This document shows positions 2,963-56,047 of a stretch of DNA of 64,000 bases, one piece after another. The stretch's first letter is position 1. Each line of letters begins with the position of its first letter. The translations under genes were made by a program, and so were the position numbers. A model generated the notes under the pieces. That model saw only the letters and a list, made by a program, of their open reading frames with translations, did no database searches and was not told the DNA's origin. The stretch comes from a virus (lineage: Duplodnaviria > Heunggongvirae > Uroviricota > Caudoviricetes). The stretch lies in IMG/VR virus record IMGVR_UViG_3300034157_000066; one strand, written 5' to 3'.

Positions 2963-3053
2963 TATCTTCTTTTTCATTATATCTATCATTGTTGAGCGAT
3001 TTATGATATTATAGTCCAAACATTTCGAGGTTTTTTAATTGAAAATTACAACA

Positions 3054-4277
3054 ATGATTGATGACATAGAAAAAATTCTAGAAGAATCATCAGAACGGCT
3101 AAATTTAAAGCAGATTAACACTAAAGAACAACCGTGCAAGGCTGATGCTGATAATCAATTTTCTTTTAGTTCGATGGGACTTAATGATAAAATTAAAATA
3201 TATTTAATTGCCCATAAAGATGTTAGTGTTGTCTATGATTTCTTAAAACTGTCACATAAGACAATTAAAAACATCGAAAAAGCTCGAAATTTCATTGCAA
3301 ATATTATTCCAGAAGAAACATCAGTTCAGCATATTATTAACAAAATACAAATTCATACTGATGACAAAATTGAACTCTCTATCATTGGTTGTGGGTGTAC
3401 AAGTTTTAGAGTGCTTCTTCGTGATGGCTTGGTATCATTTTCTATATCACACGTCAGCAATTCATATAGCAAGGAAACCTATAATTTTGAAAACTATGAT
3501 GATTTTGATGATTTAGTTAATACAGCCGTTAATAAAATCATTCCGTCTTTTATTGAAACCATAGGATTTTCATCAGGAGACAAAAACTCACCAGACGTTG
3601 TAGATTTTATTGAAAAAACAGCCGAACAAATGTTTTTTGAAAAAGAGTTAAACCCACTTTTCAATTATATTAAGCCAAATGAGCTGGTTCATTTAGTTTG
3701 TTCTGATTTAAATTTAAATTTGAATGATGTCATGCAGTCATTAAACTACAAAGAAAATGACTCTATGAAAAGTCTTAATATTCCTAATAATTTAACAACT
3801 ATGATATCTTCTATTGCTCAACATCTGGTTAATATTGATGGCATTAAATATAAATTTGATCAACTCATTAGCCTTATCATTCTTTATAATAATATTACTA
3901 ATAAAAAAGAAAAATTTTCAGTTACTTTTTATCCAGTGCAAAAGAAAGATTTCTTTAAAGGTAATTCTTTTAATCGGTCTTACTATGTACTTAATATCAG
4001 TGAAACATTAACAATTTACATTGGTCATAAACTAGGTGATGGTAAAAAAGATGACATAGCTTATTTAGATGATAGTGATGATTTTAAATTGTTCTCATTT
4101 GTTTATTTAAAAGACTTAATGAATTATGACTACTATGAATACTTAACTAACGATATTGATTATGTTTACAATGCTATTTTAACAGATCTTCGGTCTATTA
4201 TTAAAAAGGTTCTCTGCAAAGAGGATGACACTATTAGTTTCCGAGATCTTGAAGTTTATAAAATGGCTGTATTTTAA
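3054..4277 (+). CDS. hypothetical protein (~407 aa), very AT-rich, paralog of 4388..5611
   Basis: Long ORF; TTG at 3039 or ATG at 3054 possible; shares N-term (IYLIAH(K/E)DV...DFL(K/N)LS) and C-term (ND(I/L)DY(V/I)YN(A/V)ILT...(L/I)EV(Y/F)KMA) motifs with next gene. Confidence 0.6.
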   Translation: MIDDIEKILEESSERLNLKQINTKEQPCKADADNQFSFSSMGLNDKIKIYLIAHKDVSVVYDFLKLSHKTIKNIEKARNFIANIIPEETSVQHIINKIQIHTDDKIELSIIGCGCTSFRVLLRDGLVSFSISHVSNSYSKETYNFENYDDFDDLVNTAVNKIIPSFIETIGFSSGDKNSPDVVDFIEKTAEQMFFEKELNPLFNYIKPNELVHLVCSDLNLNLNDVMQSLNYKENDSMKSLNIPNNLTTMISSIAQHLVNIDGIKYKFDQLISLIILYNNITNKKEKFSVTFYPVQKKDFFKGNSFNRSYYVLNISETLTIYIGHKLGDGKKDDIAYLDDSDDFKLFSFVYLKDLMNYDYYEYLTNDIDYVYNAILTDLRSIIKKVLCKEDDTISFRDLEVYKMAVF

Positions 4278-4387: not shown

Positions 4388-5611
4388 ATGAACATTAGTG
4401 AAAAAATCAATGAATTGGAAATCAATATTAAATCATTTATTGCGGAAAATAATCTTCCTGTTTTAATTCCAAATAATAATTATCGCATTTCTTTGGATGG
4501 CGAAAATCAATGCGTTTTTGCTCAGAGTGGTAATTCACATCTTTATTTGATTGCACATGAAGATGTTCAAATCATGGAAGATTTTCTTAACTTAAGCCCT
4601 AATACAGTTAACAAGATAAATAAAATTCGGGCTTTTATTCGTGATATGTATGATGACACCAATAATTTCAAACATAAACGGTTGAAAGTTAAAATTGATC
4701 CAGATCAAAGTGTTGAGTTTTCGATTATCGGCCTTGGACTTGGTGGTCTTAGAATTGAATTAAAAGCCACTGAGCTTGTTGTTTCTTGGATTTATGGCGA
4801 TAACGTTAGCGTCATTTATTCTCTCGATGATGACATTGAACAGAAAGTAAATGAAGCATTGGATCTTGTTATACCAACAATATTAACTAAGCTTGGATTT
4901 TTGAAATGCTCAGAACACTCAGAAGAAGTTATTGATTTTATGAATAAATCTACTGATGATTTAATTGTTGAACATTTTTCAAAATTTGGATTTGATTATA
5001 TTCATCAAAATGAATTGATTGCAAATGCATGTTCATCGACCAAAATTAGTTTGGATGACCTTAACAACTATAATAAAAAAAATGAAAAACCTAATCTTAT
5101 TAAAATACCCCATATGATGATGTCTATTTTACCAAAAATCATGAGTAATATTTCATCAGATATTTCAGTGCATTCAAAATTTAAACAACTCCTTAGTCTT
5201 ATTTATTTTTACGACTATTTAAAACCAACAAACTCAGAAGCTCTCTTGATTTTTAAAGAATATTCAAAATTTGATTTAGCCCCATCAGCTAGTTTTCAAT
5301 CTGGATATTTTACTCTTTTAATGGGTGGTCTTCTTAGACTTGATGTAGGGCACCAATTAAAACCAGATCCAGATGATGAAGAACATCTGTTTGATAGCCC
5401 AAGTGAAAATGGTTATGCCTATATGTTTGAAATTTATCTTTATGATGTAGAAGCACCTGATGCTTTTTACAAATACTTTTGTAATGACCTTGATTATATT
5501 TACAATGTTATATTGACTAAAGTTAGAAACTTAATTAATTCAGCTATCTTAAATGTCGATGAGCCACTTACAGCCAGACAAATTGAAGTTTTTAAAATGG
5601 CGACTGTTTAA
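4388..5611 (+). CDS. hypothetical protein (407 aa), paralog of 3054..4277
   Basis: Promoter gtggTATAAT ~4337-4346, RBS gtgaggcgataATG; paralogy to upstream gene. Confidence 0.65.
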   Translation: MNISEKINELEINIKSFIAENNLPVLIPNNNYRISLDGENQCVFAQSGNSHLYLIAHEDVQIMEDFLNLSPNTVNKINKIRAFIRDMYDDTNNFKHKRLKVKIDPDQSVEFSIIGLGLGGLRIELKATELVVSWIYGDNVSVIYSLDDDIEQKVNEALDLVIPTILTKLGFLKCSEHSEEVIDFMNKSTDDLIVEHFSKFGFDYIHQNELIANACSSTKISLDDLNNYNKKNEKPNLIKIPHMMMSILPKIMSNISSDISVHSKFKQLLSLIYFYDYLKPTNSEALLIFKEYSKFDLAPSASFQSGYFTLLMGGLLRLDVGHQLKPDPDDEEHLFDSPSENGYAYMFEIYLYDVEAPDAFYKYFCNDLDYIYNVILTKVRNLINSAILNVDEPLTARQIEVFKMATV

Positions 5612-5707
5612 CTGTTAACAAAATAACCAATCACAATTGTATTTTTTTGATTGTGATTGGTTTTCATTGATTGTATAATCATGGTTCAAATCAAAAGGAT
5701 TACAGAA

Positions 5708-6016
5708 ATGGCTGCTATTATTCGTCACTTGTTTGCAAATGAAGAAATGACTTGGCGAGCAAAATCGGTTTTTGGTGACATCGTTGAAGAAGCCTACCTT
5801 TGTTTCAACAAAGAAGATGATGGCGATAATTCTGTTTTTGAAGGCTATAATGATAAGCTGACACTCTCATTAGAAAACACACAACTTCTTCGTAATTGCC
5901 TCGATTCCGAGAAACCCATTGCTATCAAGTTCAAGAATGGTCGTATTGTTGAAATGGCTTCTCATGACATGTTGATGCTTGAACGTATTGACCAAGAGCC
6001 TTTGCTGGTGGTTTGA
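5708..6016 (+). CDS. hypothetical protein (102 aa)
   Basis: tgTATAAT at ~5672-5679, RBS aaaaggattacagaaATG; track ORF 5657 trimmed. Confidence 0.6.
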   Translation: MAAIIRHLFANEEMTWRAKSVFGDIVEEAYLCFNKEDDGDNSVFEGYNDKLTLSLENTQLLRNCLDSEKPIAIKFKNGRIVEMASHDMLMLERIDQEPLLVV

Positions 6017-6052
6017 TCTTTCTCTCAATGATGTATGTAGGCAATTTTTTTG

Positions 6053-6081
6053 TTTACATACGTTGTTTTTTACGCTATACT
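6053..6081 (+). promoter_or_regulatory. T4-early-like promoter gTTTACA-17-TATACT
   Basis: TTTACA 6053-6058, spacer 17, TATACT 6076-6081. Confidence 0.5.
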
Positions 6082-6087
6082 ACCTGT

Positions 6088-6320
6088 GAATTTTAGCACT
6101 TCTGCGAAAACTTATTGAGAAGTAATTTTTCGCAGTGGTGGCGGAATTCCACCTCGTTGGCAGAGGACTAATGTGAAGGGAGTTGGGGGCAGAACCCAAT
6201 GAAATGTCACAAGGACAATACACCTTGTGTAACTCTAATGAGACAAATTGCCTTGGCGACCCGCCAGTTAAACGCACCTGCGGAATCAGGTCGAGGGGTT
6301 GAAAATTATTAACAATCGTT
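6088..6320 (+). ncRNA. candidate structured RNA or long structured 5' leader of the next gene
   Basis: ~230 nt GC-richer non-coding stretch with multiple hairpins (ctgcgaaaa...ttttcgcag; ggtggcggaattccacc; cacaagg...ccttgtg); no RBS-bearing ORF; second promoter TATACT 6342-6347 follows. Confidence 0.35.
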
Positions 6321-6378
6321 GTCCTTGGATAGTGATTGTGTTATACTACATTACATTCAAAAAGTGGAGTATTCAAAC

Positions 6379-6693
6379 ATGTCTCAGTTGACCGAAATTG
6401 CAGAATTAGAAGACAAATCTGCATTGTCTTCATTGTTGTCGCAACCCGGTGTCTTAATTGATATTGATCGGTCAGGCAGTATCACAGCCGAGGAAATGGA
6501 ATCTTTTCTCAATGAACTATCAATGATTACTGCAGCTTCTGAAAAGAAAGATCGTTGGTTGAACTTTAGTCACAAACTCCGTAACAAAGGCAAAGAAATG
6601 AAACCTCGTGTTTGTAGTAAGCGAAACGAGATCCGTTTTAAGCTGACCGAAATTAATCCTAAATATGAGTTTATGTTTACGGATGGAGAATGA
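6379..6693 (+). CDS. hypothetical protein (104 aa)
   Basis: RBS aaaaagtggagtattcaaacATG; track ORF 6319 trimmed to RBS-supported ATG. Confidence 0.6.
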   Translation: MSQLTEIAELEDKSALSSLLSQPGVLIDIDRSGSITAEEMESFLNELSMITAASEKKDRWLNFSHKLRNKGKEMKPRVCSKRNEIRFKLTEINPKYEFMFTDGE

Positions 6694-6744
6694 ACTATAA
6701 GTTATAAAAAAAACCAGCTACTGCTGGTTTTTTATTGTCTTTAC

Positions 6745-7260
6745 TTATTTCAATTCATCATATGTTTTATTAATTAGTAATGTTGACGGCCCATATGAAC
6801 ATGATATTTCATATACTTTATCATAAAATGCAGGTCTTACTACAAGATGCATATCTCTTGTTGCATCTGCTGAAAATGTTCCTATGTTTTCTGCTGTCAA
6901 AAATTGAGTGTAATAAGTTCCATTATTTAGATGGACATCAATTAAAATAACTTGACTATATCTTGAAGACTTGTCTGCAAGCTCAGCAGATGTAGAAAAC
7001 CCGCCATCAGTTTTGTATCCAATGTTGTAATATATAATATCTGGATACTTCGATATCGTTGGATAACCATTCATCAACTCAGGTGTAGAGAAGTTTTCAG
7101 GACACTCTTCCGGTTCAGCAGGTGGAGTAGGTTCTGTACTTCCGCTATCTTTATCAATAAATGAAATGGGTTCAGGCAGTTTGAAATAATAACTATATTC
7201 AGCAAATGAACTTAATGGTAATAATGTTAGTAGTGCAACAGTAAATTTTATTAATCTCAT
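6745..7260 (-). CDS. secreted protein with signal peptide and Pro-rich segment (171 aa); member of AEY-x-I/V N-terminus family
   Basis: N-term MRLIKFTVALLTLLPLSSFA|EYSYYFKLPEP; own promoter on minus strand (TTGACT...TAAAAT in 7261-7320); low GC. Confidence 0.7.
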   Translation of the reverse strand: MRLIKFTVALLTLLPLSSFAEYSYYFKLPEPISFIDKDSGSTEPTPPAEPEECPENFSTPELMNGYPTISKYPDIIYYNIGYKTDGGFSTSAELADKSSRYSQVILIDVHLNNGTYYTQFLTAENIGTFSADATRDMHLVVRPAFYDKVYEISCSYGPSTLLINKTYDELK

Positions 7261-7323
7261 AATATTCTAATTGTTTTATATTATTTTATATATCAAAAAT
7301 ATTAAGTCAATTTCATTAGATAA

Positions 7324-7351
7324 TAAAAAACCAGCATTAGCTGGTTTTTTA
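7324..7351. terminator. bidirectional rho-independent terminator
   Basis: aaaaaaccagcattagctggtttttt with T/A runs on both sides; lies between convergent gene ends. Confidence 0.7.
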
Positions 7352-7361
7352 TCTACTTATT

Positions 7362-8396
7362 TTAGTTTTTTGATTTTACATAAATTTCTTTCAAGCTGCT
7401 CACATCAAAGTGTGGAGCGGTTGCATAAGAGAAGCTTGGACAAATTCTATTTGGTCCAACTATTCCATTACCACCACAAGGACCACCCGCACCATACACA
7501 GGCCACAATCCGAATGTGTCTGTCATATCAGTAGCTCTCTGACCCGGCCAACCAGCCGCTTCTGGATAGAGTGTTTTCGATCCGATAGATGTATTGACTG
7601 AGAAACCACCTGCAATGTTTTGCCCCTTGTTAAAGGTGTTGAATGTTTGCCAAGAACCAAACATACTAGTCCATGTTGCGTTAGCATTCTTCACCATCAT
7701 CGCAGAACTTATATTCACAGAACCACTTGGGATTACTGGATAGGCTGTTGTATCGTTTGAATAACTGAGTATTTTACCCGTTTTCATTGCCACATCTTGG
7801 AAGTTACGCTTAGCAGACCCAGCCGGTAATTGTGTCCAACGACCCACCAATATCCAGTTCCCTCCAGCAGTATTCATATCAACATAAGCTTTAGCTTTGT
7901 TTCCTAAACCATCAGTAATGTCATAAATGCCGCTTTGACCTGCCACTGGGTTCATGATCATTAGATAACTTGTAGATGTTCCTACAGCATTCTTGGTATT
8001 CGTTAAGTTGCTCAATTCTTTACCAGAGGCTTCATCGTTATACGCAACACCTTTATCACGAATTTCACCTGTTACAGCATTTTTTTCTTGCTTGATATAA
8101 CTTTCATATTTCATACCCTTACAGTTTGTTGCTGTTTGAGTGTAGGTTGTATTAATCAACTCATCGGCTGGTAATGGTGCCCAGTTTGTGCATCCGTATC
8201 TATATAATGGATCTTCTTTTGGTAAATCAACTAAACCTAATGACTTTGGAGTGATTTCTAACCACTCAACTTGTTTGAATTTTATTTCAACAGTCCCCAT
8301 TATCACTTCATATTTTGCATAGGATAATCCGCAAAAAAGAGCAATTGACGCCATTGATAATATTTTTATGTTTTTATTAGTTGTCTTCATATTCAT
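7362..8396 (-). CDS. secreted protein (344 aa) with one copy of Cys-containing ~50-aa repeat (GCTNW.P...QTATNCKG)
   Basis: Signal peptide MNMKTTNKNIKILSMASIALFCGLSYA|KYEV; minus-strand promoter TTGAAA-16-TATAAT in 8397-8460; shares repeat with 8515, 16311, 56048 proteins. Confidence 0.75.
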   Translation of the reverse strand: MNMKTTNKNIKILSMASIALFCGLSYAKYEVIMGTVEIKFKQVEWLEITPKSLGLVDLPKEDPLYRYGCTNWAPLPADELINTTYTQTATNCKGMKYESYIKQEKNAVTGEIRDKGVAYNDEASGKELSNLTNTKNAVGTSTSYLMIMNPVAGQSGIYDITDGLGNKAKAYVDMNTAGGNWILVGRWTQLPAGSAKRNFQDVAMKTGKILSYSNDTTAYPVIPSGSVNISSAMMVKNANATWTSMFGSWQTFNTFNKGQNIAGGFSVNTSIGSKTLYPEAAGWPGQRATDMTDTFGLWPVYGAGGPCGGNGIVGPNRICPSFSYATAPHFDVSSLKEIYVKSKN

Positions 8397-8460
8397 ACTT
8401 TGTTCTTATTATTTTAAGTATTATAATATTTTTATTGTATATTTCAAGTCTTATATAAAA

Positions 8461-8492
8461 ATAAAAGACCTTATGGCCTTTTTATTTTTTTA
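8461..8492. terminator. rho-independent terminator for minus-strand gene 8515..9222 (hairpin aaagaccttatggccttt)
   Basis: Hairpin flanked by A/T runs just downstream (minus sense) of stop. Confidence 0.65.
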
Positions 8493-8514
8493 ATGGTAAA
8501 TCCTCTCTTATCTC

Positions 8515-9222
8515 TTAAATAGCTATTCGACAGACTTGATAAGTTGATTGCTCTGCATTAACAAGTGGCCCCATATAATATCTGTATCCACCAGAAACTA
8601 CAGATGTAAGATTTGTATGGACAGGGTTGTCAAAGATTGTTGCACCTTTCCAATAAATTGCTGTACCCCATCCATATCCAAAATAATTGTCATATCCTAA
8701 ATAATAATAAGAATTATTACTATAATCACTATAATTGTGCCATTTATAGTCACATTCTGGTTGGGCTTTTGTTCCTGTATTTGTTCTGCTTGATGATACA
8801 ACAATGATTTGATCTTCTGTGGATTGTATTCCCTTGTATCTAATAGCTTTCGTTGTTGATTCTTGTTCTCGTTCCTGTATTGAACGTGTTTGTGATTGCT
8901 GACAATTTGTAGCTGTTTGATTGAAGGATTCTCCCAAATTTACAGTAGATGGTTCAGGTGACCAATTATTACACCCAGTAATTGCTCCACTATCAATCCA
9001 TTCACTATATTCTGGGCTGATTACCAACCAATTTTCAGAAGGTGTTTCTGGAATTGTTGGTACCTCTGGATCTGTGGGTGCTTCAGTGGTTGGTTTAAAT
9101 TGAATAGATCCTGATTGTATGTGTCCACCATTATTAGATTCAAGTGGGAAATTTAACATATATCCAGCTTGAATTATGTTTATTGATAGTGCTGCAAATG
9201 ACACAAGTATTATTCTTTTCAT
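8515..9222 (-). CDS. secreted protein (235 aa): signal peptide, Pro/Thr/Glu-rich linker, Cys-repeat, Cys-bounded aromatic-rich C-terminal domain ending YQVCRIAI
   Basis: MKRIILVSFAALSINIIQA|GYMLNFPLES; GCNNWSPEPS...QTATNCQQSQTRS.QEREQESTTKAIRYKG; own TATAAT promoter at ~9262. Confidence 0.75.
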   Translation of the reverse strand: MKRIILVSFAALSINIIQAGYMLNFPLESNNGGHIQSGSIQFKPTTEAPTDPEVPTIPETPSENWLVISPEYSEWIDSGAITGCNNWSPEPSTVNLGESFNQTATNCQQSQTRSIQEREQESTTKAIRYKGIQSTEDQIIVVSSSRTNTGTKAQPECDYKWHNYSDYSNNSYYYLGYDNYFGYGWGTAIYWKGATIFDNPVHTNLTSVVSGGYRYYMGPLVNAEQSTYQVCRIAI

Positions 9223-9403
9223 ATGTTATTGTTAGTTTGTTATATATTATAGTATCATGAAGTAACATATTTAAAAGCATTATGTCTTTATTTAATAAAT
9301 TGTATACATTTTAATTATATGTTTTCATAAATGAATTTTTATTGCTTATTTTTCTATTTCCTGTATAATATGCAATTATTAATTCAAATACAGGACACAT
9401 AAA

Positions 9404-9670
9404 ATGCCTCGCACATCAGAAGATGCTTTTCAAAATGGTCAACGTTACAGCATTTGTGATAACACTGGTTTTATTGAGGCTAATGCTAGCTTCATTTACC
9501 GTGGACACTTGATTTCCTTCTCGACTATCGGGTATAATAAACCCATTCAGCAGAACCATGTTTTGGTTATCGGTAGCAATGGTAACAGCGACATTATTAA
9601 AGAATTCGATAGCGTCGAGTCGGCCATCGTCAACATCAATAACTGGTTGAGCAACCATAATCCGAGCTAA
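9404..9670 (+). CDS. hypothetical protein (88 aa)
   Basis: Promoter ctgTATAAT ~9362-9370, ATG with A-rich leader. Confidence 0.55.
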   Translation: MPRTSEDAFQNGQRYSICDNTGFIEANASFIYRGHLISFSTIGYNKPIQQNHVLVIGSNGNSDIIKEFDSVESAIVNINNWLSNHNPS

Positions 9671-9699
9671 TCAGTAATCATTTTCTTAGGAGACTTATC

Positions 9700-10461
9700 A
9701 TGCTTCGTAACGTAACCATTCAGGGCAGATACATTGAAGGCACTTGGCTGCTTTTGGAATCATTCAATGAGTTGACTGAATACATGGAGTTCACTTCGGG
9801 CCGTGTGGTTCAGCAAATCACCCGCCTGTTGAGAAGCAAGGTCAGCCCTGAACGTTGGGATCACATGATTACTCGCACACCAGAAGGCAGTATATTGGCG
9901 GCTTCCATCATCTATTGCCAAGCCCACGGCAAAAGCCCATTGATTGAAATGGATGGAATCATTCAGCAAAAGTTTTTGAACATGGCTAATAATATTTCCC
10001 AAGGCAAAAAGCTTCTGGTTAACCCGTTGGGTGGTTATTGCTACATGACAGACGACATTTCCATTCTGTCGGAAGAAGCCTTTGAAACAGGCTTTCAGTT
10101 GACTTACACCATCAATGAAAACACTCAATACATCAATCTGGAAAATGATCCAGAACTTGAAGAACGCACACGTCAGTATTTGGGTGAACGAGATCCGAAT
10201 TACTCCTACATCTTGAACCTTCACAAGTTCAGTAAAGACGATTTGATCAAGGTGTTCACCGAATTCAAAGAAAATGGCGGTTCGATTGTTCATGTGTACA
10301 CCACAGGCACCAACGTGCCACAGATGTATGAATGCTTTGACGCAGCCAAAGAAGCTGGCTTGAATGACTTTGTTTTTGAATTCAATGCTGGAACTGAAAA
10401 CGGTATTGCAGAGTTCATCAGTCATATCAAACCTTTGTGCAATCTTACTTTGGTAGTGTGA
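9700..10461 (+). CDS. hypothetical protein (253 aa)
   Basis: RBS cttAGGAGActtatcATG; long ORF. Confidence 0.65.
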   Translation: MLRNVTIQGRYIEGTWLLLESFNELTEYMEFTSGRVVQQITRLLRSKVSPERWDHMITRTPEGSILAASIIYCQAHGKSPLIEMDGIIQQKFLNMANNISQGKKLLVNPLGGYCYMTDDISILSEEAFETGFQLTYTINENTQYINLENDPELEERTRQYLGERDPNYSYILNLHKFSKDDLIKVFTEFKENGGSIVHVYTTGTNVPQMYECFDAAKEAGLNDFVFEFNAGTENGIAEFISHIKPLCNLTLVV

Positions 10462-12352: not shown

Positions 12353-12425
12353 GGCTGTTTGTAGTTCAGTTGGCAGAACTCCGTCGAAAAACGGTAGTCG
12401 TGGGTTCGAATCCCATCATACAGCC
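12353..12425 (+). tRNA. tRNA-like element with canonical D- and T-arms but non-canonical anticodon arm (pseudo-tRNA or unusual tRNA)
   Basis: 73 nt; D-loop AGTTGGCA, T-arm GTGGG-TTCGAAT-CCCAT, acceptor ~6-7 bp with one T.T; anticodon region CCGT-CGAAAA-ACGG gives 4-bp stem + 6-nt loop (or 3 bp + 8 nt); followed by terminator gaccactttcgagtggttttttt. Confidence 0.5.
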
Positions 12426-12620: not shown

Positions 12621-12932
12621 ATGAAAAAGATAATGTTTGCCTGTTTACTGGTCGTCCCATTAACATCTATTGCGGTGATTGCTAATACCACTGATGTCAT
12701 TAAATCCCGAAATGATCAGTTAGCCGAATTGGTTAAAGACTCATTTTACTCTGATGTGTCTCGTTTGAACTTGACGCCCGATCAATACACCACTATTGTT
12801 AGAAAAATCAGGACTACTAATGATGGGCTGACGACTGAAATTAAAGAAGTCCTTGATGATGACCAAAAAGATACATTTGAAACCATTATGGAAGAGAAAA
12901 AAGCATCTATGGGTGATAAAATAGGCTTTTAA
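12621..12932 (+). CDS. secreted small protein with signal peptide (103 aa)
   Basis: RBS ttAGGAGaattaaataATG; MKKIMFACLLVVPLTSIAVIA|NTTD. Confidence 0.65.
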   Translation: MKKIMFACLLVVPLTSIAVIANTTDVIKSRNDQLAELVKDSFYSDVSRLNLTPDQYTTIVRKIRTTNDGLTTEIKEVLDDDQKDTFETIMEEKKASMGDKIGF

Positions 12933-13119: not shown

Positions 13120-14004
13120 ATGACAAAGAAATATATTTTAGTGCTAATTGCTCTATCCAGTTTAGGCACTATATCGCAAGCTGATTATCAAATTAGAATT
13201 CCAATTCAACAGGCAATCTCTTTCAAGGATGTTACTTCTGGGGGTGGATCAGGCGGTAGTGGCGGCAATGGTAATGGTGGCAGCAACGGTGGTGGTGGAT
13301 TAGTTTTTACTGACCCTACTATATTAGCTGCTTATGAGGAAAAGTGTGGAGCATTTCCTAACAAAATAAATCCGTTGGCTGATCCTATACGAGACTATGA
13401 CATTAGTTGTGGTGATTATTCAAATAGAGATCTTTCTGGTTATGTGCTTGATAAAACAGGTATGCTTTTTACTAATTTTGCAAATTCAATATTAGATGGA
13501 GCTATATTAGGTGATTCTAGCTTGGCTAACAGTAATCTATCAGGAGCATCCTTAATAGGTGCTCAGTTTACCGTAAATGGCGAAAGCACTACATTAACGA
13601 ATGCTGATATTAGTAATGCTAACTTAACAAATGCTTATATGAACAAATCATATTTAGAAAAAACTAATTTTACTGACTCTAATTTAACAGGTGCTGTATT
13701 AACTAACACTAGTTTTGTTGGTGCAAACTTGAAAAATGCTAACTTAACGAATACTAATTTTGACACTTCCTATGTTATTGATACGAATTTTACTAGTTCA
13801 AATTTTACAGGAGCCACATTAACTAATACTGCATTTATTAATACTAATTTTACTAACGCAAATTTGATTGGAGCTGATCTCAGCACCAGTGCGTTCAGCA
13901 ATGTTGATTTCACTAATATCTTGTATGATGCGACCACAAAATGGCCTTCATGGTACACACCACCACAATCTAGTAATGGATATCAGTTCACACCGCAATG
14001 GTAA
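13120..14004 (+). CDS. secreted pentapeptide-repeat protein (294 aa) with Gly-rich linker
   Basis: Signal peptide ...GTISQA|DYQIRIPIQQ (same AxY.I..P mature N-term as secreted family); GGGSGGSGGNGNGGSNGGGG; >20 tandem A(N/D)L(T/S)x pentapeptides (ANLTN, SNLTG, ANLKN, TNFTS, ADLST). Confidence 0.75.
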   Translation: MTKKYILVLIALSSLGTISQADYQIRIPIQQAISFKDVTSGGGSGGSGGNGNGGSNGGGGLVFTDPTILAAYEEKCGAFPNKINPLADPIRDYDISCGDYSNRDLSGYVLDKTGMLFTNFANSILDGAILGDSSLANSNLSGASLIGAQFTVNGESTTLTNADISNANLTNAYMNKSYLEKTNFTDSNLTGAVLTNTSFVGANLKNANLTNTNFDTSYVIDTNFTSSNFTGATLTNTAFINTNFTNANLIGADLSTSAFSNVDFTNILYDATTKWPSWYTPPQSSNGYQFTPQW

Positions 14005-16310: not shown

Positions 16311-17255
16311 ATGTACATTAAAAAATTGCTCTTAGTTCCTGCACTTTCATTGTTAGGAATGAATTCTTTCGCAGAATATCAAATACAATATCCAGATGTT
16401 CCCGTTATCTTTAAAGATCTTGGTAAATGGGTTCCGGCTAATCCTATAATCTCTACTTGGGTTAATGTAGGCACTCCACATGATTGTCAAAGTGCTTCGC
16501 CACTTGAGAACACACAACAACTGGGTTTGTCATATGAAAAAACATTTTCAGGCTGCAAACAAGCACAAGAAAGAACTGTAACTACTTCTGAAAAACAGAC
16601 GTTTACAGGTGCTGTTCGTAATCAAGTGAGCACAAAAGAAACACAAGTGTTAACTAATGCTAGTTATAAAGTTAATTCTATTGGAACTACTGATTTTGGT
16701 CAATGGTTACAAACTGCTCCAGTTTATACAGGTTGGGTAAATCTTGAATCTCCACATGATTGTACAAGTGCTATACCACTTGAAAATACACAAACACTTA
16801 ATTCAACTTATGTAAAAACATTTTCTGGTTGCACACAGTCACAGGAACGCACTGTCACAACTTCTGAAAAGAATACTGTTACAGGTGTTGTTCGTAACGT
16901 AGTTAATACTAAGGAAAATCAAGTTCTCACTAATGTAACTTATACTGCAAATGCAATAGGAACAAAGGTTGTTAAAGAATGTGGTTACTCAGCAGTCAGT
17001 GGACATGCTTACAGATGGTATGATATTGCCACTTATGATGGTTATACAACTACTTATGGAATGGGGTTACAATGGGATGGTTCTACTAAAATTGATACCA
17101 CAAACATTAGTAAGACTTACCCTAAAGCAGCAACTTTTGTGAATGGTGGTTATACTTATACTCGCGGTGCATTTAAAGAAAAAGGTTCACATTATGACGG
17201 TCTACGTTCATACTATTATTACTATGAAGTGTGTAGAGAACCAATTGCACCATAA
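16311..17255 (+). CDS. secreted protein (314 aa) with two tandem copies of Cys-repeat and Cys-bounded aromatic C-terminal domain (...YYYEVCREPIAP)
   Basis: Signal peptide MYIKKLLLVPALSLLGMNSFA|EYQIQYPDVP; two ~95% similar repeats (PHDC.SA.PLENTQ.L...KTFSGC.Q.QERTVTTSEK.T.TG.VRN.V.TKE.QVLTN); start chosen at ATG 16311 (weak RBS); terminator 17262-17290. Confidence 0.7.
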   Translation: MYIKKLLLVPALSLLGMNSFAEYQIQYPDVPVIFKDLGKWVPANPIISTWVNVGTPHDCQSASPLENTQQLGLSYEKTFSGCKQAQERTVTTSEKQTFTGAVRNQVSTKETQVLTNASYKVNSIGTTDFGQWLQTAPVYTGWVNLESPHDCTSAIPLENTQTLNSTYVKTFSGCTQSQERTVTTSEKNTVTGVVRNVVNTKENQVLTNVTYTANAIGTKVVKECGYSAVSGHAYRWYDIATYDGYTTTYGMGLQWDGSTKIDTTNISKTYPKAATFVNGGYTYTRGAFKEKGSHYDGLRSYYYYYEVCREPIAP

Positions 17256-24422: not shown

Positions 24423-24761
24423 ATGAAAGTAATGAAAATTGTTTTTGCTGCTGTTGCCCTTGTAATGATGACTGGCTGCATGTCAACCTCTCAGTATGGC
24501 TCCTACAAAGAACGTCAAATTGAACGCAAGTGCATCGTGAATGCTGACAAACAAGCTCAAAATGCCTACATTCGCCGTCAAACTGATGTTCGGTTTGCAG
24601 ACTCTCAGAAGGAAGCCATGCGAGCTAACCAAATGTTTCAGAAAAAGATTGCCAGTATTGAAACCAGCAAAGACCGTTGTTTATCCAATGGTCAGCGTCG
24701 GGTCTTTGAAGAACAGCTTCGCCGCACGACTAACCGCATGTATAACCGTAGCTACTACTGA
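24423..24761 (+). CDS. putative lipoprotein (112 aa)
   Basis: MKVMKIVFAAVALVMMTGC lipobox-like; RBS gAAGGATACgaccATG; ~100-nt structured leader from tggTATAAT ~24320. Confidence 0.6.
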   Translation: MKVMKIVFAAVALVMMTGCMSTSQYGSYKERQIERKCIVNADKQAQNAYIRRQTDVRFADSQKEAMRANQMFQKKIASIETSKDRCLSNGQRRVFEEQLRRTTNRMYNRSYY

Positions 24762-31580: not shown

Positions 31581-32435
31581 ATGCTTAAAAAGATTTTTGC
31601 TTCTCTTGTTCTTCTGGCATCAGTTGCCCTCAGTGGGTGTTCTGAAACCGTAGACGCTGGTTTTGTTGGTGTTGTTGAAAAACATCCCTACGTTGGTCCG
31701 GGTGGTGTAGAGAAAGAATTTTACAAAGGTGGTGATCGCTACTATATCTCGCCAACCTCCATCATGCACCGCTATGACATTAAACCTATTCAGAAAGAAG
31801 AAGCGTTTAATGACTTGGCAACCATTAACTCGACTCCGGTAGACTTTAAAGCGGTGGTTCGTTATGAAATCATTCCTGAAAAAGCTTACATCTACCATGA
31901 AAGCTTTGGTAATGCGATGTATGATAATAACTTGAAAAAAGACTTTCAAAACATGCTTCGTGACTTTGCTCGAAAACACACTGTGAAGCAACTCACTACA
32001 GAACAGACAGTGACTGACGCAGGTGAAGACGATGTTTACAAGAAAATGGTTGACATTGTTGTAGCAAAAGGCATTCCGGTTCGAATTTTGGCTGTAACTA
32101 TCGGTGCAATTATGCCACCCGATGAAGTTCTTGCAGAAACTGCTCGGACAGAAGCTCAAATTCAACGTGCATTAACTGAAATTGAACGAGCATCTGCTGA
32201 AACTCAGCGAAAAGAAGCTGAAACCAACAAAGCTGCTGCTGACAATGAATACATGAGCAAAATGAAAATGACACCTGAGCAATACTTGCGAGGTCGTGAA
32301 ATTGATAACCAGCGTGAAATTGTTGAAACGGTCAAAAAGAAAGATAACGTCAACATGTTGATTGTCTTGGGTGGTGGTGGTTCCCTTCCACAAGGGGTAA
32401 CAGTTCCACAGCCAATCGTTCAACCAAAGCAGTAA
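31581..32435 (+). CDS. SPFH/band-7 (prohibitin/HflK-like) domain lipoprotein (284 aa)
   Basis: Lipobox LSGC; TVDAGFVGVVEK start typical of SPFH domain entry; C-terminal Ala/Glu/Gln-rich coiled-coil; terminator aaaggccaactagtggccttttttg ~32447-32475. Confidence 0.5.
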   Translation: MLKKIFASLVLLASVALSGCSETVDAGFVGVVEKHPYVGPGGVEKEFYKGGDRYYISPTSIMHRYDIKPIQKEEAFNDLATINSTPVDFKAVVRYEIIPEKAYIYHESFGNAMYDNNLKKDFQNMLRDFARKHTVKQLTTEQTVTDAGEDDVYKKMVDIVVAKGIPVRILAVTIGAIMPPDEVLAETARTEAQIQRALTEIERASAETQRKEAETNKAAADNEYMSKMKMTPEQYLRGREIDNQREIVETVKKKDNVNMLIVLGGGGSLPQGVTVPQPIVQPKQ

Positions 32436-32492
32436 ATAAGCAATAAGAAAAAAGGCCAACTAGTGGCCTTTTTTGTTGTCTTTAATTAAGTA

Positions 32493-32960
32493 TTAAAGGT
32501 TAGGGTAGCGGCATATTTTATAGTAGTTATACTTGGTATCAGCTCTATTAAATGCTCCTAATACATAAGTGTATTGACCAGCAATAAATGGGAAATATTT
32601 ATTTTGAGTATATACACTGTCTATAACTATTGTGTTAGTCCATTTAATATATCTAATCATGCCTATTGGATAAGGTGTTGATGTATTAAATGTCATTGCA
32701 TAGTTAGAACTTTCTGAATAGTTTTGGCATGTATACCCTGCCCTATCTTCGTCCTTTGGTGGCACTGGCGGTTCAGGAATTACAGGGACTTCTGGCTCAG
32801 GCGGTATTGGTGGTGTTTCTGGATTTGTAGGCGGTTTGATCTTTGAAAATACGATGTCACCTTCATTTAAGTGAGCTTTTGGATGAATGACCACTTGATA
32901 ACTTGCATTCGCTATTGTTGTTACAGCCAATAAAGAGGCTATCATTATTATTTTTTTCAT
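32493..32960 (-). CDS. secreted protein (155 aa): signal peptide, Pro-rich linker, Cys-bounded aromatic C-terminal domain (...YYKICRYPNL)
   Basis: MKKIIMIASLLAVTTIANA|SYQVVIHPKA; PPTNPETPPIPPEPEVPVIPEPPVPP; own minus-strand promoter tgtatTATAAT ~32975-32990; C-term aligns with 8515/16311/56048 C-termini. Confidence 0.7.
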   Translation of the reverse strand: MKKIIMIASLLAVTTIANASYQVVIHPKAHLNEGDIVFSKIKPPTNPETPPIPPEPEVPVIPEPPVPPKDEDRAGYTCQNYSESSNYAMTFNTSTPYPIGMIRYIKWTNTIVIDSVYTQNKYFPFIAGQYTYVLGAFNRADTKYNYYKICRYPNL

Positions 32961-34134: not shown

Positions 34135-35256
34135 ATGTCCAGCATCTTCCCGCGTATTGAAACCCTTGATGATATGCTTCCTCACATCAAAGACCGTGCC
34201 TATATTTCTGTTAATAAACAGGATAACGGTGCCAACATCGTTTGCTATAACATCAGCAACGGCGACTCTTTCAACACTCCGGTTGAAAAGGAAGCTCGCG
34301 GTATTACCTTTGACGACAACGGTAAAATCCTGTCGCGTCCATTGCACAAATTCTTCAACTTGGCAGAGCGTGCAGAAGTCCAACCAGCCGTTTTGGATTG
34401 GAACACGATGGTCGCCGGGTTTGATAAAATGGATGGCTCCATGATTACCACAGGGCTGTTCAACGGCGAATTTTTTGCTAAGTCCAAGAAGTCTTTCAAA
34501 TCGGATGTGGCTGTTTCTGCAGAAAGTTTTGTGTCTCGTAACCAGAAATACTACGAGTTCACCAAATATTGCTCTCAGGCCCAACTGACCCCTATTTTTG
34601 AATTCACTTCGCCAAAACATCGTATCGTTTTGCGTTATGACGAAGACAACATGACACTTCTTCATGTTCGTCACAACATCACAGGCGATTACTTAATGCC
34701 TGCTGACAAAGACCAACTGGCGTTGTTGTTTGATATTCCTGTTAACAAGCCACTGTTTGGTGAAGAATTTGATTTGGCTGCTTTATTGAAGTCGCTGAAC
34801 ACTGTTGAAGGGATTGAAGGCTACGTTATTCAGTTCGTTAACGGTAACATGATCAAAATCAAAACCAAATGGTATATGAACCTCCATCATGCGGTTAGCT
34901 TTGTTCGTGAACGTGATATTGCTCGGTTGGTGGTTGAAGAAAAACTTGATGATTATATCGCTTATTTGTCGCTGAACTCGCCAACGGCTGATTTGAGTGA
35001 GATTTATCGAATCAATGACGCTATCAAAGCTTCGATTGAAGCGTTGTCGAAAGAAGTTGATGATATTGCTGCTGAATTCCAAGGTGTTGATGTGAAAACT
35101 GCAGCAATTCAGCTTAAAGGCCATAAACACTTTGGTTTTGTTATGGGTGCAATTCGTGGTCACAAAAACGACTACCTGTATCACTACTCTAAAAACCATC
35201 TGGTGGATTGGTCGTTGGAACAAATTGAGCTTGGCGACTTGTCAGCTCCGGTTTAA
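34135..35256 (+). CDS. rnlA: RNA ligase 1 family (T4 RnlA-like) paralog A, 373 aa
   Basis: KxDG adenylation motif (FDKMDGSM), RGITFD.NG...RP..KFFNL, EGYV.QF..G...KIKT.WY.NLHH blocks; same length (373-374 aa) as T4 Rnl1; promoter cgaTATAAT ~34096-34104; terminator aagccctgcacttgcggggcttttt ~35270. Confidence 0.8.
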   Translation: MSSIFPRIETLDDMLPHIKDRAYISVNKQDNGANIVCYNISNGDSFNTPVEKEARGITFDDNGKILSRPLHKFFNLAERAEVQPAVLDWNTMVAGFDKMDGSMITTGLFNGEFFAKSKKSFKSDVAVSAESFVSRNQKYYEFTKYCSQAQLTPIFEFTSPKHRIVLRYDEDNMTLLHVRHNITGDYLMPADKDQLALLFDIPVNKPLFGEEFDLAALLKSLNTVEGIEGYVIQFVNGNMIKIKTKWYMNLHHAVSFVRERDIARLVVEEKLDDYIAYLSLNSPTADLSEIYRINDAIKASIEALSKEVDDIAAEFQGVDVKTAAIQLKGHKHFGFVMGAIRGHKNDYLYHYSKNHLVDWSLEQIELGDLSAPV

Positions 35257-36166: not shown

Positions 36167-36222
36167 ATTAAAAATCAGTTTTTGATATAATCAATTCAGA
36201 CAATTTAATCGTGGAGATTCAC

Positions 36223-37344
36223 ATGACTTATCAACAAGAACTGTATGCCCAACTGATGAACCTGTTGGTGACGAATCCGGGGTCGTTCAAATACCGTGAT
36301 GAAACCTCGGCAGTAGACGGCGGGACTTACCGTGTCTTCAACTATGACATTCCAAAGCACTCCGAATTCAAACTTCCGGGTGCTAAGGATTGCCGTGGGG
36401 TCATGTTCTACATGGGCGGTGATGATCCAGTGCTGGTTGCATTGCCTATGCAGAAATTTTTCTCGCTCGGTGAAACCCCAGAGACTCAAAAGATCAAGCC
36501 AGAAGAAGCGGATCATGCTTACTTGAAGCCGGACGGTTCCTTGCTGACCAGCTATATCTCGCCGGTTAACAATACGCTTTACTACAAGAGCAAAAAGAAG
36601 CCAACTTTTGCCGATTATGACCTTGTTGAAAAGTCTATCAGCCCTGAATTGCACGCTGACATTGAACGGTTGACCCGCACAGGTGTTTCTGTTGACTTGG
36701 AATTGACCACGCCCAAAAACCGCGTGTTCATTGAATACACTGATTACGCTGTTCATATCCTAAAAGCCCGTGATATGAGCACTGGTGCTTATGTTGATAT
36801 TCGTTCGGCTGAATTCGCTGCCAAATACCCGGTTATTGCGGCCCATTTGGTGAAACGTATCCCTATCAATGAACTCAACGTCAATGACCCTGAGATTGAG
36901 GGTTATGTGGTTGAATTTGGCACTGACATGTATAAGGTGAAGACAATTCCTTACCTGAAAATGTCGGCAGTTGTCAACATTCAGGATCGGTCGAAGGAAC
37001 GTCAGGTTATTTATGAAGCAACACTTCACGAAATTCTGGATGAAATCCGTTCGTTGTATCACTACCGGACGCACAGCGACAACTTCCCACTGGCTGAAAT
37101 TCTGGCTCGCTTGGATGAAGTAGAAGACTATGCACGTAAAAGCTACCATTACCTTGTTCGCACGGTCGATAGCTTCCACAATGAGCATAAAGGTCTGGAA
37201 CGTGGCGATTACGCTCGTAAAGCCAAAGAAGTGGCTCCATTGCTTCTGTCGGTGTTGATGAGCAAGTTTTCGGGTGATGAGATTGATTACAAACAAGCTG
37301 CTATCATGGTATTTGCTCGTAAACAAGTGCCTATTCCCGAGTAA
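36223..37344 (+). CDS. rnlA: RNA ligase 1 family (T4 RnlA-like) paralog B, 373 aa
   Basis: GGTYRVFNYD...CRGVMF, MQKFFSLGETPE, YLKPDGSLLTSY (KxDG), EGYVVEFGTDMYKVKT, EHKGLERGDYARKAK closely parallel T4 Rnl1 blocks; promoter ttgaTATAAT ~36183-36192; terminator aacggccctagtcttctagggcttttttat ~37353. Confidence 0.85.
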   Translation: MTYQQELYAQLMNLLVTNPGSFKYRDETSAVDGGTYRVFNYDIPKHSEFKLPGAKDCRGVMFYMGGDDPVLVALPMQKFFSLGETPETQKIKPEEADHAYLKPDGSLLTSYISPVNNTLYYKSKKKPTFADYDLVEKSISPELHADIERLTRTGVSVDLELTTPKNRVFIEYTDYAVHILKARDMSTGAYVDIRSAEFAAKYPVIAAHLVKRIPINELNVNDPEIEGYVVEFGTDMYKVKTIPYLKMSAVVNIQDRSKERQVIYEATLHEILDEIRSLYHYRTHSDNFPLAEILARLDEVEDYARKSYHYLVRTVDSFHNEHKGLERGDYARKAKEVAPLLLSVLMSKFSGDEIDYKQAAIMVFARKQVPIPE

Positions 37345-55968: not shown

Positions 55969-56047
55969 GATCTCAGCTAACTTCGATCATATTAGGATAT
56001 GAATAACAAAACCCCATTCTTGGGGTTTTGTTTGTGTGTTATATAGT

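Follow-up and report, generated by a model that had tools for sequence, protein, structure and literature searches.

Three neighboring genes on the minus strand of a viral DNA record encode proteins that combine a signal peptide-like N-terminus, a short tag beginning with x-Tyr, and a C-terminal head that differs from one protein to the next. A tentative reading, to which we give a little under even weight, is that the three proteins are exported stalk-and-head glycan binders carried on accessory cassettes, with a tag that may serve in docking to, or export by way of, the tip of a type IV pilus.

Organization of the seven proteins

The DNA is IMG/VR record IMGVR_UViG_3300034157_000066. The whole stretch of 64,000 nucleotides is referred to as the window, and features are given by window position. 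Seven proteins are compared here, lettered A (6745), B (7362), C (8515), D (13120), E (16311), F (32493) and G (56048), and the protein of gene G was modelled as the family representative. As the initial annotation had described, genes A, B and C are minus-strand open reading frames within a plus-strand block. The genes and their parts are as follows.

6745–7260, minus strand: gene A, 171 aa; signal peptide, tag, linker, orphan domain
7260–7201, minus strand: gene A signal peptide, aa 1–20
7200–7150, minus strand: gene A tag EYSYYFKLPEPISFIDK, aa 21–37
7149–7105, minus strand: gene A Pro/Thr/Glu linker, aa 38–52
7104–6748, minus strand: gene A orphan domain, aa 53–171; stalk repeat absent
7362–8396, minus strand: gene B, 344 aa; signal peptide, tag, diverged stalk repeat, lectin-like head
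8396–8316, minus strand: gene B signal peptide, aa 1–27
8315–8265, minus strand: gene B short tag KYEVIMGTVEIKFKQVE, aa 28–44
8264–7977, minus strand: gene B single diverged stalk repeat, aa 45–140
7976–7365, minus strand: gene B fibrinogen/intelectin-like head, aa 141–344
8515–9222, minus strand: gene C, 235 aa; signal peptide, tag, linker, one stalk repeat, aromatic C-terminal domain
9222–9166, minus strand: gene C signal peptide, aa 1–19
9165–9091, minus strand: gene C long tag GYMLNFPLESNNGGHIQSGSIQFKP, aa 20–44
9090–9037, minus strand: gene C Pro/Thr/Glu linker, aa 45–62
9036–8767, minus strand: gene C single stalk repeat, aa 63–152
8766–8518, minus strand: gene C Cys-bounded aromatic C-terminal domain, aa 153–235
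13120–14004, plus strand: gene D; signal peptide, tag DYQIRIPIQQAISFKD, Gly-rich linker, pentapeptide-repeat domain
16311–17255, plus strand: gene E; signal peptide, tag, two stalk repeats, aromatic Cys C-terminal domain
32493–32960, minus strand: gene F; signal peptide, tag, Pro-rich linker, aromatic Cys C-terminal domain; repeat absent
32448–32474: bidirectional terminator of gene F
56048–56914, minus strand: gene G; signal peptide, tag, two stalk repeats, aromatic Cys C-terminal domain
56005–56032: terminator-like hairpin of gene G

The proteins appear to share one plan, in which a cleavable signal peptide is followed by the tag, often by a flexible Pro/Thr/Glu linker, and then by a stalk and a variable C-terminal head. 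An N-terminus with the n, h and c regions of a signal peptide, ending in small-x-small and followed by x-Tyr, is found in seven of the seven proteins with a home-made heuristic. By this prediction, the signal peptides and the shared mature N-terminus claimed initially hold for the entire set. B was considered as a lipoprotein and rejected, since the Cys residue in its h-region lacks a lipobox and is missing in the orthologs. Linkers rich in Pro, Thr and Glu, which had also been noted, occur in A, C and F, and the linker of D is Gly-rich.

The tag is 15–28 residues long and starts with x-Tyr, with the pattern Y-x-hydrophobic-x-hydrophobic-P-L ... I-x-F. The same tag is present in more than 60 bacterial homologs, and the Tyr is conserved in 62. 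An HMM trained solely on the tags of the bacterial homologs (no window sequence was included) recognizes C (9.6e-11), G (1.3e-4) and D (1.4e-3), and weakly E (0.74); A, B and F are not reached by this HMM. In the structural models the tag region has low confidence (pLDDT 47–63), and in the model of B it is a low-confidence hairpin. The tag is common to proteins with unrelated bodies (A, D and F), and flexible linkers come after it. It is probably best explained as a separate module; alternatively, it could be no more than a cap at the N-terminal end of the stalk. Its identification as a TonB box or as a chaperone-usher donor strand was dropped, as the likeness was one of pattern only and the context gave no support.

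Stalk and heads

Sequence comparison shows paralogy between C and G (5e-40), E and G (4e-35), B and G (5e-12), and F and E (2e-6). The Cys-containing repeat had been assigned to A, B, C, E and G; the analysis places it in B, C, E and G, and A lacks it. Its length also had to be revised: the period is about 90 residues (Trp35 to Trp125 in G), and the 50 or so residues originally described are the conserved core. The proteins of the window have zero to two such modules in the stalk, each modelled as a β-hairpin ribbon with one Cys pair. AlphaFold models the repeat of about 90 residues with confidence (pLDDT 89), as long β-hairpins with one conserved Cys pair per module. The Cys pairs of G (Cys54/Cys77, Cys144/Cys167 and Cys217/Cys284) are invariant or nearly so in 33–42 homologs. 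The repeat is a real module with conserved Cys positions.

The best structural matches to the repeat are the SasG/G5 stalks, although the resemblance is weak. The E-G5 repeats of SasG and Aap are single-layer β-sheet stalks of Gram-positive adhesins. Like these and the G5 stalks, the repeats may form long, thin β-ribbon modules in tandem, with a putative terminal binding domain and a variable number of repeats. No window protein has a Pfam match to G5 at E ≤ 1. The TSP1-type Pfam model has no match on the repeat of the window proteins, and distant homologs do match it (P0202 with 30.4 bits, cut-off 27; P0131 with 20.8 bits). A fold search of BFVD gave nothing at E ≤ 0.001, and no PDB chain was matched by sequence with G, B, A or the family profile.

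The heads of the three antisense proteins differ: that of B is lectin-like, that of C is probably a Cys-bounded, aromatic-rich β domain, and that of A is an orphan domain. A Cys-bounded aromatic domain with the ending Y-x-[VI]-C had been claimed for four proteins, and is found in C, E, F and G.

The head of B is probably a fibrinogen/intelectin-like lectin domain, and among its nearest known counterparts are the fibrinogen-related lectin domains of ficolins and intelectins. Residues 143–344 are homologous to gp217 of the Pseudomonas jumbo phage PaBG (33% identity; tblastn 2e-24; hhalign E 2e-45), which is annotated as a 'putative fibrinogen domain-like containing protein' and located in a tail-fiber cluster. 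The core motif YCDM...GGGW of the head corresponds to AYVDMNTAGGNWILVGRW, and its M, GG, W and R-W positions are invariant in 13 sequences. The Cys residue of the motif is replaced by Val in B and kept in gp217. Against NCBIfam NF040941 ('fibrinogen-like YCDxxxxGGGW domain') the head of B scores 23.3 bits, below the cut-off of 30, and B has no Pfam match to PF00147. PaBG gp217 scores 18.6 bits against a cut-off of 22 in the curated-family test (PF00147 or NF040941). There are differences between the two proteins. PaBG gp217 consists of the head only, without the signal peptide, tag or stalk of B, and its gene adjoins those of a long tail fiber and an adhesin.

D is a pentapeptide-repeat protein (PF00805, 8e-28, 96 bits against a cut-off of 20.2). 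For A, the homolog search found only A itself, and scans of Pfam, PHROGs, NCBIfam and PADLOC were empty. As A matched itself alone, it yielded neither a family nor a model, and it is tied to the set by its predicted signal peptide and tag only. The statement that the family is not a recognized one thus stands in part. The head of B is lectin-like, with a homolog in a tail-fiber cluster, whereas the repeat and the aromatic C-terminal domain have no match in Pfam, PHROGs, NCBIfam, PADLOC or, by sequence, the PDB, and constitute a family without an entry.

Cassettes and distribution of the family

The initial annotation gave each of the three antisense genes its own promoter and terminator. This layout agrees with matches to -35/-10 and hairpin/T-run patterns, which are listed here with the segments that are gained or lost as units.

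9246–9275, minus strand: promoter-like site for C, TTTAAA-18-TATAAT, 10/12 (consensus pattern match)
8420–8447, minus strand: promoter-like site for B, TTGAAA-16-TATAAT, 11/12 (consensus pattern match)
7283–7310, minus strand: promoter-like site for A, TTGACT-16-TAAAAT, 10/12 (consensus pattern match)
8463–8482, minus strand: terminator-like hairpin and T-run after C
7323–7352: palindromic, bidirectional terminator-like hairpin after B; stem common with the terminator after A
6708–6733: bidirectional terminator-like hairpin after A; also ends the convergent plus-strand gene 6319–6693
8456–9391: C cassette as an indel unit (blastn breakpoints)
6756–7324: A cassette as an indel unit, missing from relative L003 (blastn breakpoints)

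The best minus-strand -35/-10 matches of A, B and C are located 24–30 nt upstream of the respective starts. In the AT-rich DNA of the window, promoter-like sites are not above chance (21 found, 18 expected), and terminator-like sites are (6 found, 2.2 expected).

Relatives of the window differ in these segments. One with 96% identical DNA (L011) lacks the C cassette, with clean boundaries. A second (L003, about 81% identical) lacks both 8456–9385, the C cassette, and the A cassette, again with clean boundaries. The A cassette lies between direct repeats of 44 nt (6697–6740 and 7318–7360, 89% identical) that correspond to the two terminators. A, B and C are best explained as three accessory cassettes of the "moron" type, putatively transcribed independently. 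As in phage morons, each has its own promoter-like and terminator-like sites and is antisense between its neighbors, and the presence of A and C varies among otherwise collinear, nearly identical relatives. Phage morons are autonomous insertions of promoter, gene and terminator that are expressed from a repressed prophage.

With the profile of the repeat family, 867 representative clusters are recovered, and a single protein can have as many as about 25 repeats. The family is concentrated on megaplasmids and islands of Pseudomonas and Vibrio and is abundant on MPF_I megaplasmids; pMPPla107 carries 22 copies. Among the carriers are Pseudomonas of clinical origin or associated with plants, Vibrio from shrimp and oyster, and low-GC bacteria of about 1.5–1.9 Mb. 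Elsewhere in the family there are F5/8-C, LRR and Big_1 heads, and subtilase and chitinase-N domains occur as well. No match was found with G by tblastn in 50,697 phage records, with the family in a scan of IMG/VR, or with positions 6000–10000 by megablast against phages. Judged by these searches, the family is not phage-specific. The passages found in the papers on pMPPla107 and PaBG give no description of it.

The description of the element as a virulent phage is unproven, and a syntenic relative sits inside a metagenomic contig of 1.86 Mb. The window was also considered as a megaplasmid like pMPPla107. This assignment was dropped: its RNA ligase is closer to phage relatives (42%) than to plasmid ones (28% or less), and several window ORFs match PHROGs.

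Possible functions of the tag and heads

After export and disulfide formation, the heads would bind surface glycans, and the shared tag would direct docking or export. As its partner, the strongest candidate is a PilV-type pilin at the tip of a type IV pilus, by analogy with the export signals that TcpF and CofJ have at their N-termini. TcpF of V. cholerae and CofJ of ETEC are exoproteins that depend on type IVb pili. Each has a flexible N-terminal signal, containing a critical aromatic residue, that binds the minor pilin at the pilus tip (PMC9565799, PMC10120004). The segment alone is enough for export, and its target is the pilin trimer (PMC9565799, PMC10120004, PMC6048534).

In both systems a Sec signal peptide is followed by a flexible mature N-terminus with a conserved aromatic residue. 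In both, a gene is found beside that of a minor (tip) pilin, though here this is seen only for homologs of the window proteins. A low-GC bacterial contig (L050) has one operon with a PilV-like prepilin gene followed by three tagged secreted genes. The prepilin, at 7237–8937 of the contig, has the sequence G|LSLFE and a Shufflon_N match (1.4e-6), and over its C-terminus it shares 38% identity with an annotated PilV tip adhesin. P. entomophila (L007) has a PilV-like gene of 77% identity, with a tagged family gene 60 bp downstream. The two loci carry the same module and are therefore not independent cases. On IncP-2 megaplasmids a prepilin/Shufflon_N gene is immediately upstream of a family gene, a linkage kept across the plasmid family; the family member there has a signal peptide and no x-Tyr tag.

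There are several differences, however, from TcpF and CofJ. A prepilin motif scan of the 64-kb window found no pilin gene, and a neighboring pilin is present at only 3 of about 40 family loci. The N-terminal region of the PilV of the P. entomophila type has no match in plasmids, including pMPPla107, and this PilV is thus not the partner on pMPPla107. The PDB contains the structures of CofJ and TcpF, and searches of it were empty, with no sequence or fold similarity to the family. A single exoprotein is exported in the known systems, compared to many cargoes with one tag here, and the putative partner is a PilV-like pilin instead of TcpB or CofB. Docking at the pilus tip, which draws on this analogy, is possible but doubtful.

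If docking occurs, the element may add adhesive heads to the pili of its host or cap them, with altered adhesion or the exclusion of pilus-dependent competitors as the effect. A more specific proposal, which we regard as somewhat unlikely, is that the x-Tyr tag works as a movable address, by which a repertoire of mobile-element proteins would be loaded onto PilV-type pilus tips and out of the cell. The element of the window would then give host pili lectin heads, or cap them against rival phages and plasmids. Such a system would parallel the shufflon, but act in trans, be built of cassettes and serve many cargoes. It would resemble the PilV shufflon adhesins of IncI-type thin pili in placing interchangeable binding heads at the tip of a conjugative or type IV pilus. 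The variation would arise from separate secreted proteins in trans, in contrast to DNA inversion within pilV.

Receptor masking or superinfection exclusion, suggested in the initial annotation along with a decoy role, may take place without any pilus. Proteins in the periplasm or on the outer membrane would bind LPS, capsule or protein receptors and block phages, conjugation partners or bacteriocins, with the tag as the anchor to an envelope component. We consider this rather unlikely. The signal peptides and lectin-like heads are consistent with it, and the head of B, as the homolog of a gene in a phage tail-fiber cluster, may bind a phage receptor. Cassettes that have their own promoters and vary among close relatives are often seen for exclusion genes, and the megaplasmids with multiple copies need protection as well. 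On the other hand, there is no membrane anchor or lipobox, and no known exclusion or defense protein is similar; none of the seven proteins matched the exclusion or defense models in PADLOC, PHROGs or Pfam (for example Imm, Sp and Llp). Long, rigid stalks, with as many as 25 or so repeats, fit projection from the surface better than action in the periplasm, and the adjacency to PilV-like genes is left unexplained.

The eukaryote-like heads (fibrinogen-like, discoidin and LRR) and TSP1-like stalk bring to mind conversion genes directed at a eukaryotic partner or surface, for attachment to animal, plant or protist glycans. The F5/8-C, LRR and Big_1 heads elsewhere in the family, the weak TSP1_2 matches on the stalk, the resemblance to stalks of Gram-positive surface adhesins and the range of carriers (plant-associated and clinical Pseudomonas, shrimp and oyster Vibrio, and the low-GC bacteria of about 1.5–1.9 Mb) all point in this direction. 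However, a cell-wall or outer-membrane anchor is not evident, and the closest relative of the head of B is in a phage that targets bacteria. We consider this role unlikely.

Soluble lectins, freed from the periplasm at lysis, would coat debris or neighboring cells, and thereby spare progeny virions or block competitors. Disulfide-stabilized folds fit an extracellular life, the head of B is like a phage receptor-binding module, and T4-type accessory genes are found in the context. The same family is, however, abundant on non-lytic plasmids and islands and missing from isolated phages and IMG/VR, the conserved tag is given no role, and lytic growth of the element would have to be assumed. We judge such a release improbable.

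It is very improbable that the proteins are virion fibers or decorations with the conserved N-terminal segment as a virion anchor and not an export tag: a conserved N-terminus, repeat shaft and variable C-terminal head are the classic layout of a fiber, and gp217 is in the tail-fiber cluster of PaBG, but every member has a canonical signal peptide, the family is mainly on plasmids without virions, gp217 is a head only, without signal peptide, tag or stalk, and the genes are isolated antisense cassettes amid accessory genes.

If the basic reading of A, B and C as exported stalk-and-head glycan binders holds, they belong to an unannotated extracellular family of 867 representative clusters, with a new stalk module and exchangeable heads of the lectin type, present in many copies on mobile elements of Pseudomonas, Vibrio and other bacteria. 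It would account for a large block of "hypothetical proteins" on megaplasmids of clinical and agricultural relevance. The homology of the head of B to a gene of a tail-fiber cluster ties these secreted proteins to the receptor-binding modules of phages. Should the tag be a docking signal for the pilus tip, secretion dependent on type IV pili, with two examples of one cargo each so far, would become a general system with many cargoes that mobile elements exploit, and a transferable export tag would be gained.

Three probably exported proteins on the minus strand

Genes A, B and C are located on the minus strand, within a block in which nearly all other credible genes have the opposite orientation, on the plus strand, in agreement with the initial annotation. 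Each gene is flanked by matches to a promoter and a terminator of its own, as had been proposed.

Genes and predicted signals of the cluster
8515-9222, minus strand: gene C, ORF of 235 aa
9275..9246, minus strand: promoter-like site of C, TTTAAA-18-TATAAT
8482..8463, minus strand: hairpin and T-run after the stop codon of C
7362-8396, minus strand: gene B, ORF of 344 aa
8447..8420, minus strand: promoter-like site of B, TTGAAA-16-TATAAT
7323-7352: hairpin and T-run after the stop codon of B
6745-7260, minus strand: gene A, ORF of 171 aa
7310..7283, minus strand: promoter-like site of A, TTGACT-16-TAAAAT
6708-6733: hairpin and T-run after the stop codon of A

The three promoter-like sites are among the best sigma-70-like matches of the strand, 24-30 nt before each start codon. 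As a class, such sites are not above chance in this AT-rich DNA (21, versus 18 expected from shuffles), and the argument for promoters therefore rests on position, not on number. Terminator-like sites do exceed expectation (6 versus 2.2). The stem AAACCAGC/GCTGGTTT is common to the terminators after A and B, and this pattern occurs twice in the window, with none expected. Genes F (32493) and G (56048), both on the minus strand, have terminators of the same kind.

In all seven proteins (A-C, D at 13120, E at 16311, F and G), a basic n-region, a hydrophobic core and a small-x-small site are followed at once by x-Tyr.

Predicted cleavage-site junctions (slash, cleavage site)
A: FA/EY
B: YA/KY
C: QA/GY
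D: QA/DY
E: FA/EY
F: NA/SY
G: QA/EY

We infer from these sequence features that the seven proteins are probably exported. The x-Tyr is absent from five other signal-peptide-like proteins of the window, four with a lipobox-like Cys (24423-24761, 31581-32435, 37775-38086 and 38128-38421), the fifth being ORF 12621-12932. One of the four is an SPFH/Band_7 protein (PHROG 200 'lipoprotein').

After the cleavage site, the tag reads Y-x-hydrophobic-x-hydrophobic-P-L...I-x-F, with an inserted ..GG.LP.GSI.I in the long form (for example in C). The same tag is found in 62 bacterial and metagenomic homologues. HMMs built from the tags of homologues alone, searched against all window ORFs, matched C (9.6e-11, long form), G (1.3e-4), D (1.4e-3) and, weakly, E (0.74), with the correct position in all; A, B and F were below significance in this search. 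The key residues are kept in orthologues from the related contigs L003 and L017. The tag is the sole feature that D has in common with the family. In A, D and F, a flexible linker rich in Pro/Thr/Glu or Gly joins it to an unrelated body, and the tag thus behaves as a separate module. D (13120-14004, 294 aa) and its L003 orthologue (5556-6320, 254 aa) differ by a clean 40-residue repeat block.

The stalk repeat and the head of B

The paralogy covers C and G (5e-40), E and G (4e-35), and C and E (1e-18). B has only the repeat in common with its paralogues (5e-12), F only the C-terminal domain (2e-6), and A and D only the N-terminus. The repeat had been assigned to all three genes of the cluster, which holds for B and C but not for A. 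A search for hidden further family copies in the window found none. The length of the repeat, first put at ~50 aa, is ~90 aa from the spacing of W35 and W125 in G, with (near-)invariant positions W, C-x-N-W-x-P, F-x-Q-x-A-x-x-C-x-Q-x-Q-x-R-x-x-Q-x-R-E and R...G-T. The Cys-bounded, aromatic-rich C-terminal domain closes with Y-x-[VI]-C in C, E, F and G, the same number of proteins as originally counted.

The AlphaFold2 model of G, built with 42 sequences, is all-beta (mean pLDDT 89), and each repeat folds into a long hairpin whose strands span 16-23 residues. For the signal peptide and tag, pLDDT is only 50-63. We take the repeat to be a stalk module in the form of a thin, elongated beta-ribbon that has a conserved Cys pair; this shape is well supported. 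No Pfam domain was found on the repeat in the 127 relatives of G in a 90%-clustered collection. Weak matches to Pfam TSP1_2 (thrombospondin type-1 repeat, TSR) in two distant homologues, at residues 733-765 of P0202 (30.4 bits, above cut-off) and 310-337 of P0131 (20.8 bits), hint at a remote link of the bacterial module to TSRs. Homology of the repeat to G5 or TSR domains is not supported.

In the head of B, AYVDM..GGNW.L..RW is kept in 13 of 13 B-type sequences. The NCBIfam bacterial fibrinogen-like model matches B at 4.9e-5, below the model's cut-off. The only phage match of any of the proteins is gp217 of the Pseudomonas jumbo phage PaBG ("putative fibrinogen domain-like"), which is 33% identical to the head of B (2e-24; hhalign probability 100%, E 2e-45). 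PaBG gp217 consists of the head only and has no signal peptide; it adjoins gp216 (adhesin) and gp215, which the PaBG structural proteome names as long tail fibre (PMC7412058). By sequence comparison, B joins the stalk and tag to a head type known from a phage tail-fibre gene cluster. This resemblance is the best evidence that the heads may bind cell-surface glycans.

Distribution, cassettes and the nature of the element

Among 1.84 billion representative clusters, the family profile matches 867 at E <= 1e-3 and 652 at <= 1e-10. The longest proteins reach 3,073 aa with ~25 matched stretches, and further heads or fusion partners include F5/8-C, LRR, Big_1, subtilase and chitinase-N domains. Carriers include the Pseudomonas megaplasmids pMPCFBP13716 and pMPPla107 (22 places, one of them encoding a 981-aa protein with about ten repeats), pQBR103, IncP-2-type P. 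aeruginosa megaplasmids (gene annotated "Ig-like domain-containing"), 13 Vibrio plasmids (9-14 places each in those listed), and a low-GC island of P. shirazensis that also encodes a serine recombinase and a replicase. The family was absent from the 50,697 phage records and IMG/VR searched. The seven proteins have no above-threshold match in PHROGs, NCBIfam or PADLOC families, and PDB sequence searches with G, B, A and the family profile gave no match. The family is undescribed, but some of its parts fall in known classes (the lectin head of B, the pentapeptide repeat of D, and stalk-like repeats).

A ~125-aa unannotated protein without a signal peptide is conserved at four unrelated loci, where its gene closely precedes family genes; in L007 (P. 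entomophila 6C6) it is upstream of a PilV-like gene.

Positions of the ~125-aa protein
L001, 9487-9858
L007, 857-1234
L023, 629-1012
L026, 718-1092

A low-GC bacterium (L004/L047; contig Ga0247725_1000001, 1,539,155 bp, GC 0.26-0.32) has a B-type protein (54% identical) adjoining an RND efflux operon. A relative of window ORF 43933-44292 (45% identical) is also present, and this bacterium may have some relation to the host lineage.

C-B-A is present in two metagenomic contigs (L009 and L010) that are 98.7% identical to the window. A third (L011, 96% identical) is missing exactly 8456-9391, the whole C cassette, promoter and terminator included. L003 (~81% identical, otherwise collinear) is without both 8456-9385 (C) and 6756-7324 (A), and retains B with 89% amino-acid identity. 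The 44-nt direct repeats that bracket A (6697-6740 and 7318-7360) are the two terminators. Gain and loss of this kind is what autonomous accessory ("moron"-type) insertions show. L003 also has two tandem ~410-aa paralogues without family match (window 3039-4277 and 4388-5611) and three tandem ~120-aa paralogues spanning 1491-2918 (1491-1844, within 1795-2334, and 2553-2918).

The predicted gene content is in keeping with an accessory region from a large phage, T4-like or jumbo. Two RnlA-type ligase genes are located ~1 kb apart.

RNA ligase genes of the window
34135-35256: RnlA-type RNA ligase, PHROG 562, 6e-73
36211-37344: RnlA-type RNA ligase, PHROG 562, 1.5e-46

The closest relatives of the ligases are in phages (only 42%, Ralstonia jumbo phage RsoM2USA), compared to 28% or less in plasmids. 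The window also carries an HNH endonuclease, an endonuclease VII-like gene, a DexA-like exonuclease, NUDIX and GNAT genes, an SPFH lipoprotein and two or three tRNA genes, and ~90% of its ORFs are without a match in Pfam. A T4 Y00F-family gene is present in the upstream flank of L003 and L009. The tRNA-Leu (57370-57455) and tRNA-Met (57722-57798) genes adjoin G, and ARAGORN reports a tRNA-like gene with undetermined anticodon at 12355-12425.

The initial reading as a virulent phage is only one candidate. No virion gene was seen in the window, and L017, collinear with 45-63.7 kb (50-80% amino-acid identity), sits at 776-793 kb of a 1,859,102-bp JGI contig (Ga0308158_10000001), with two more family loci (L018 and L044) up to 175 kb away. 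A contig from another study (L052; ENA k141_522346, 1,843,594 bp) contains a collinear stretch of 33 genes without a Pfam hit. Instead of being a free phage, the element may be a prophage or belong to a giant replicon.

A possible pilus-tip role for the tag

To our knowledge, an address at a shared mature N-terminus has been well studied only in TcpF/CofJ, as the export signal for type IVb pili. There, a flexible stretch at the N-terminus, in which one aromatic residue is critical, binds to the tip pilin trimer; it suffices for the export of a foreign protein, and its sequence varies between systems (PMC9565799; PMC10120004). Its resemblance to the tag is functional, not homologous. By analogy, the shared tag would be a docking signal for a pilus tip, which is the leading explanation, if a doubtful one.

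Operons of a PilV-like pilin with tagged secreted genes
L050, 7237-10648: pilin and three tagged genes
L007, 1469-3885: pilin and one tagged gene

L050 is a 91-kb bacterial contig (GC 0.33) from the same metagenome series as the closest relatives of the window. Its 566-aa type IV prepilin-like gene (leader motif G/LSLFE) matches Pfam Shufflon_N (1.4e-6, above cut-off). The C-terminus has 38% identity to an annotated PilV tip adhesin, with a further resemblance to phage tail fibres. The three long-tag secreted genes follow directly (gaps <=28 bp, one 4-bp overlap), with an aromatic C-terminal domain, an LRR head, and repeat plus C-terminal domain (P0119), respectively. In L007 (GC 0.53), the tagged family gene follows the PilV-like gene after 60 bp. 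The two PilV-like proteins are 77% identical over the first 401 residues and then diverge (constant N-terminus, variable C-terminus); this likeness despite the difference in GC suggests recent horizontal transfer, and the two loci represent the same module. In the IncP-2 megaplasmids, a different prepilin/Shufflon_N gene is immediately upstream of the family gene, a linkage kept across the plasmid family, including a member with a 73%-identical pilin. The family protein there has a signal peptide, and the x-Tyr tag is absent. A neighbouring pilin is found at only 3 of ~40 family loci, no pilin gene is present within the 64-kb window, and the L007-type PilV is absent from pMPPla107.

Overall, the initial observation is real, with corrections. 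The best-supported reading is that of exported stalk-and-head binding proteins, encoded by variable accessory cassettes of mobile elements.
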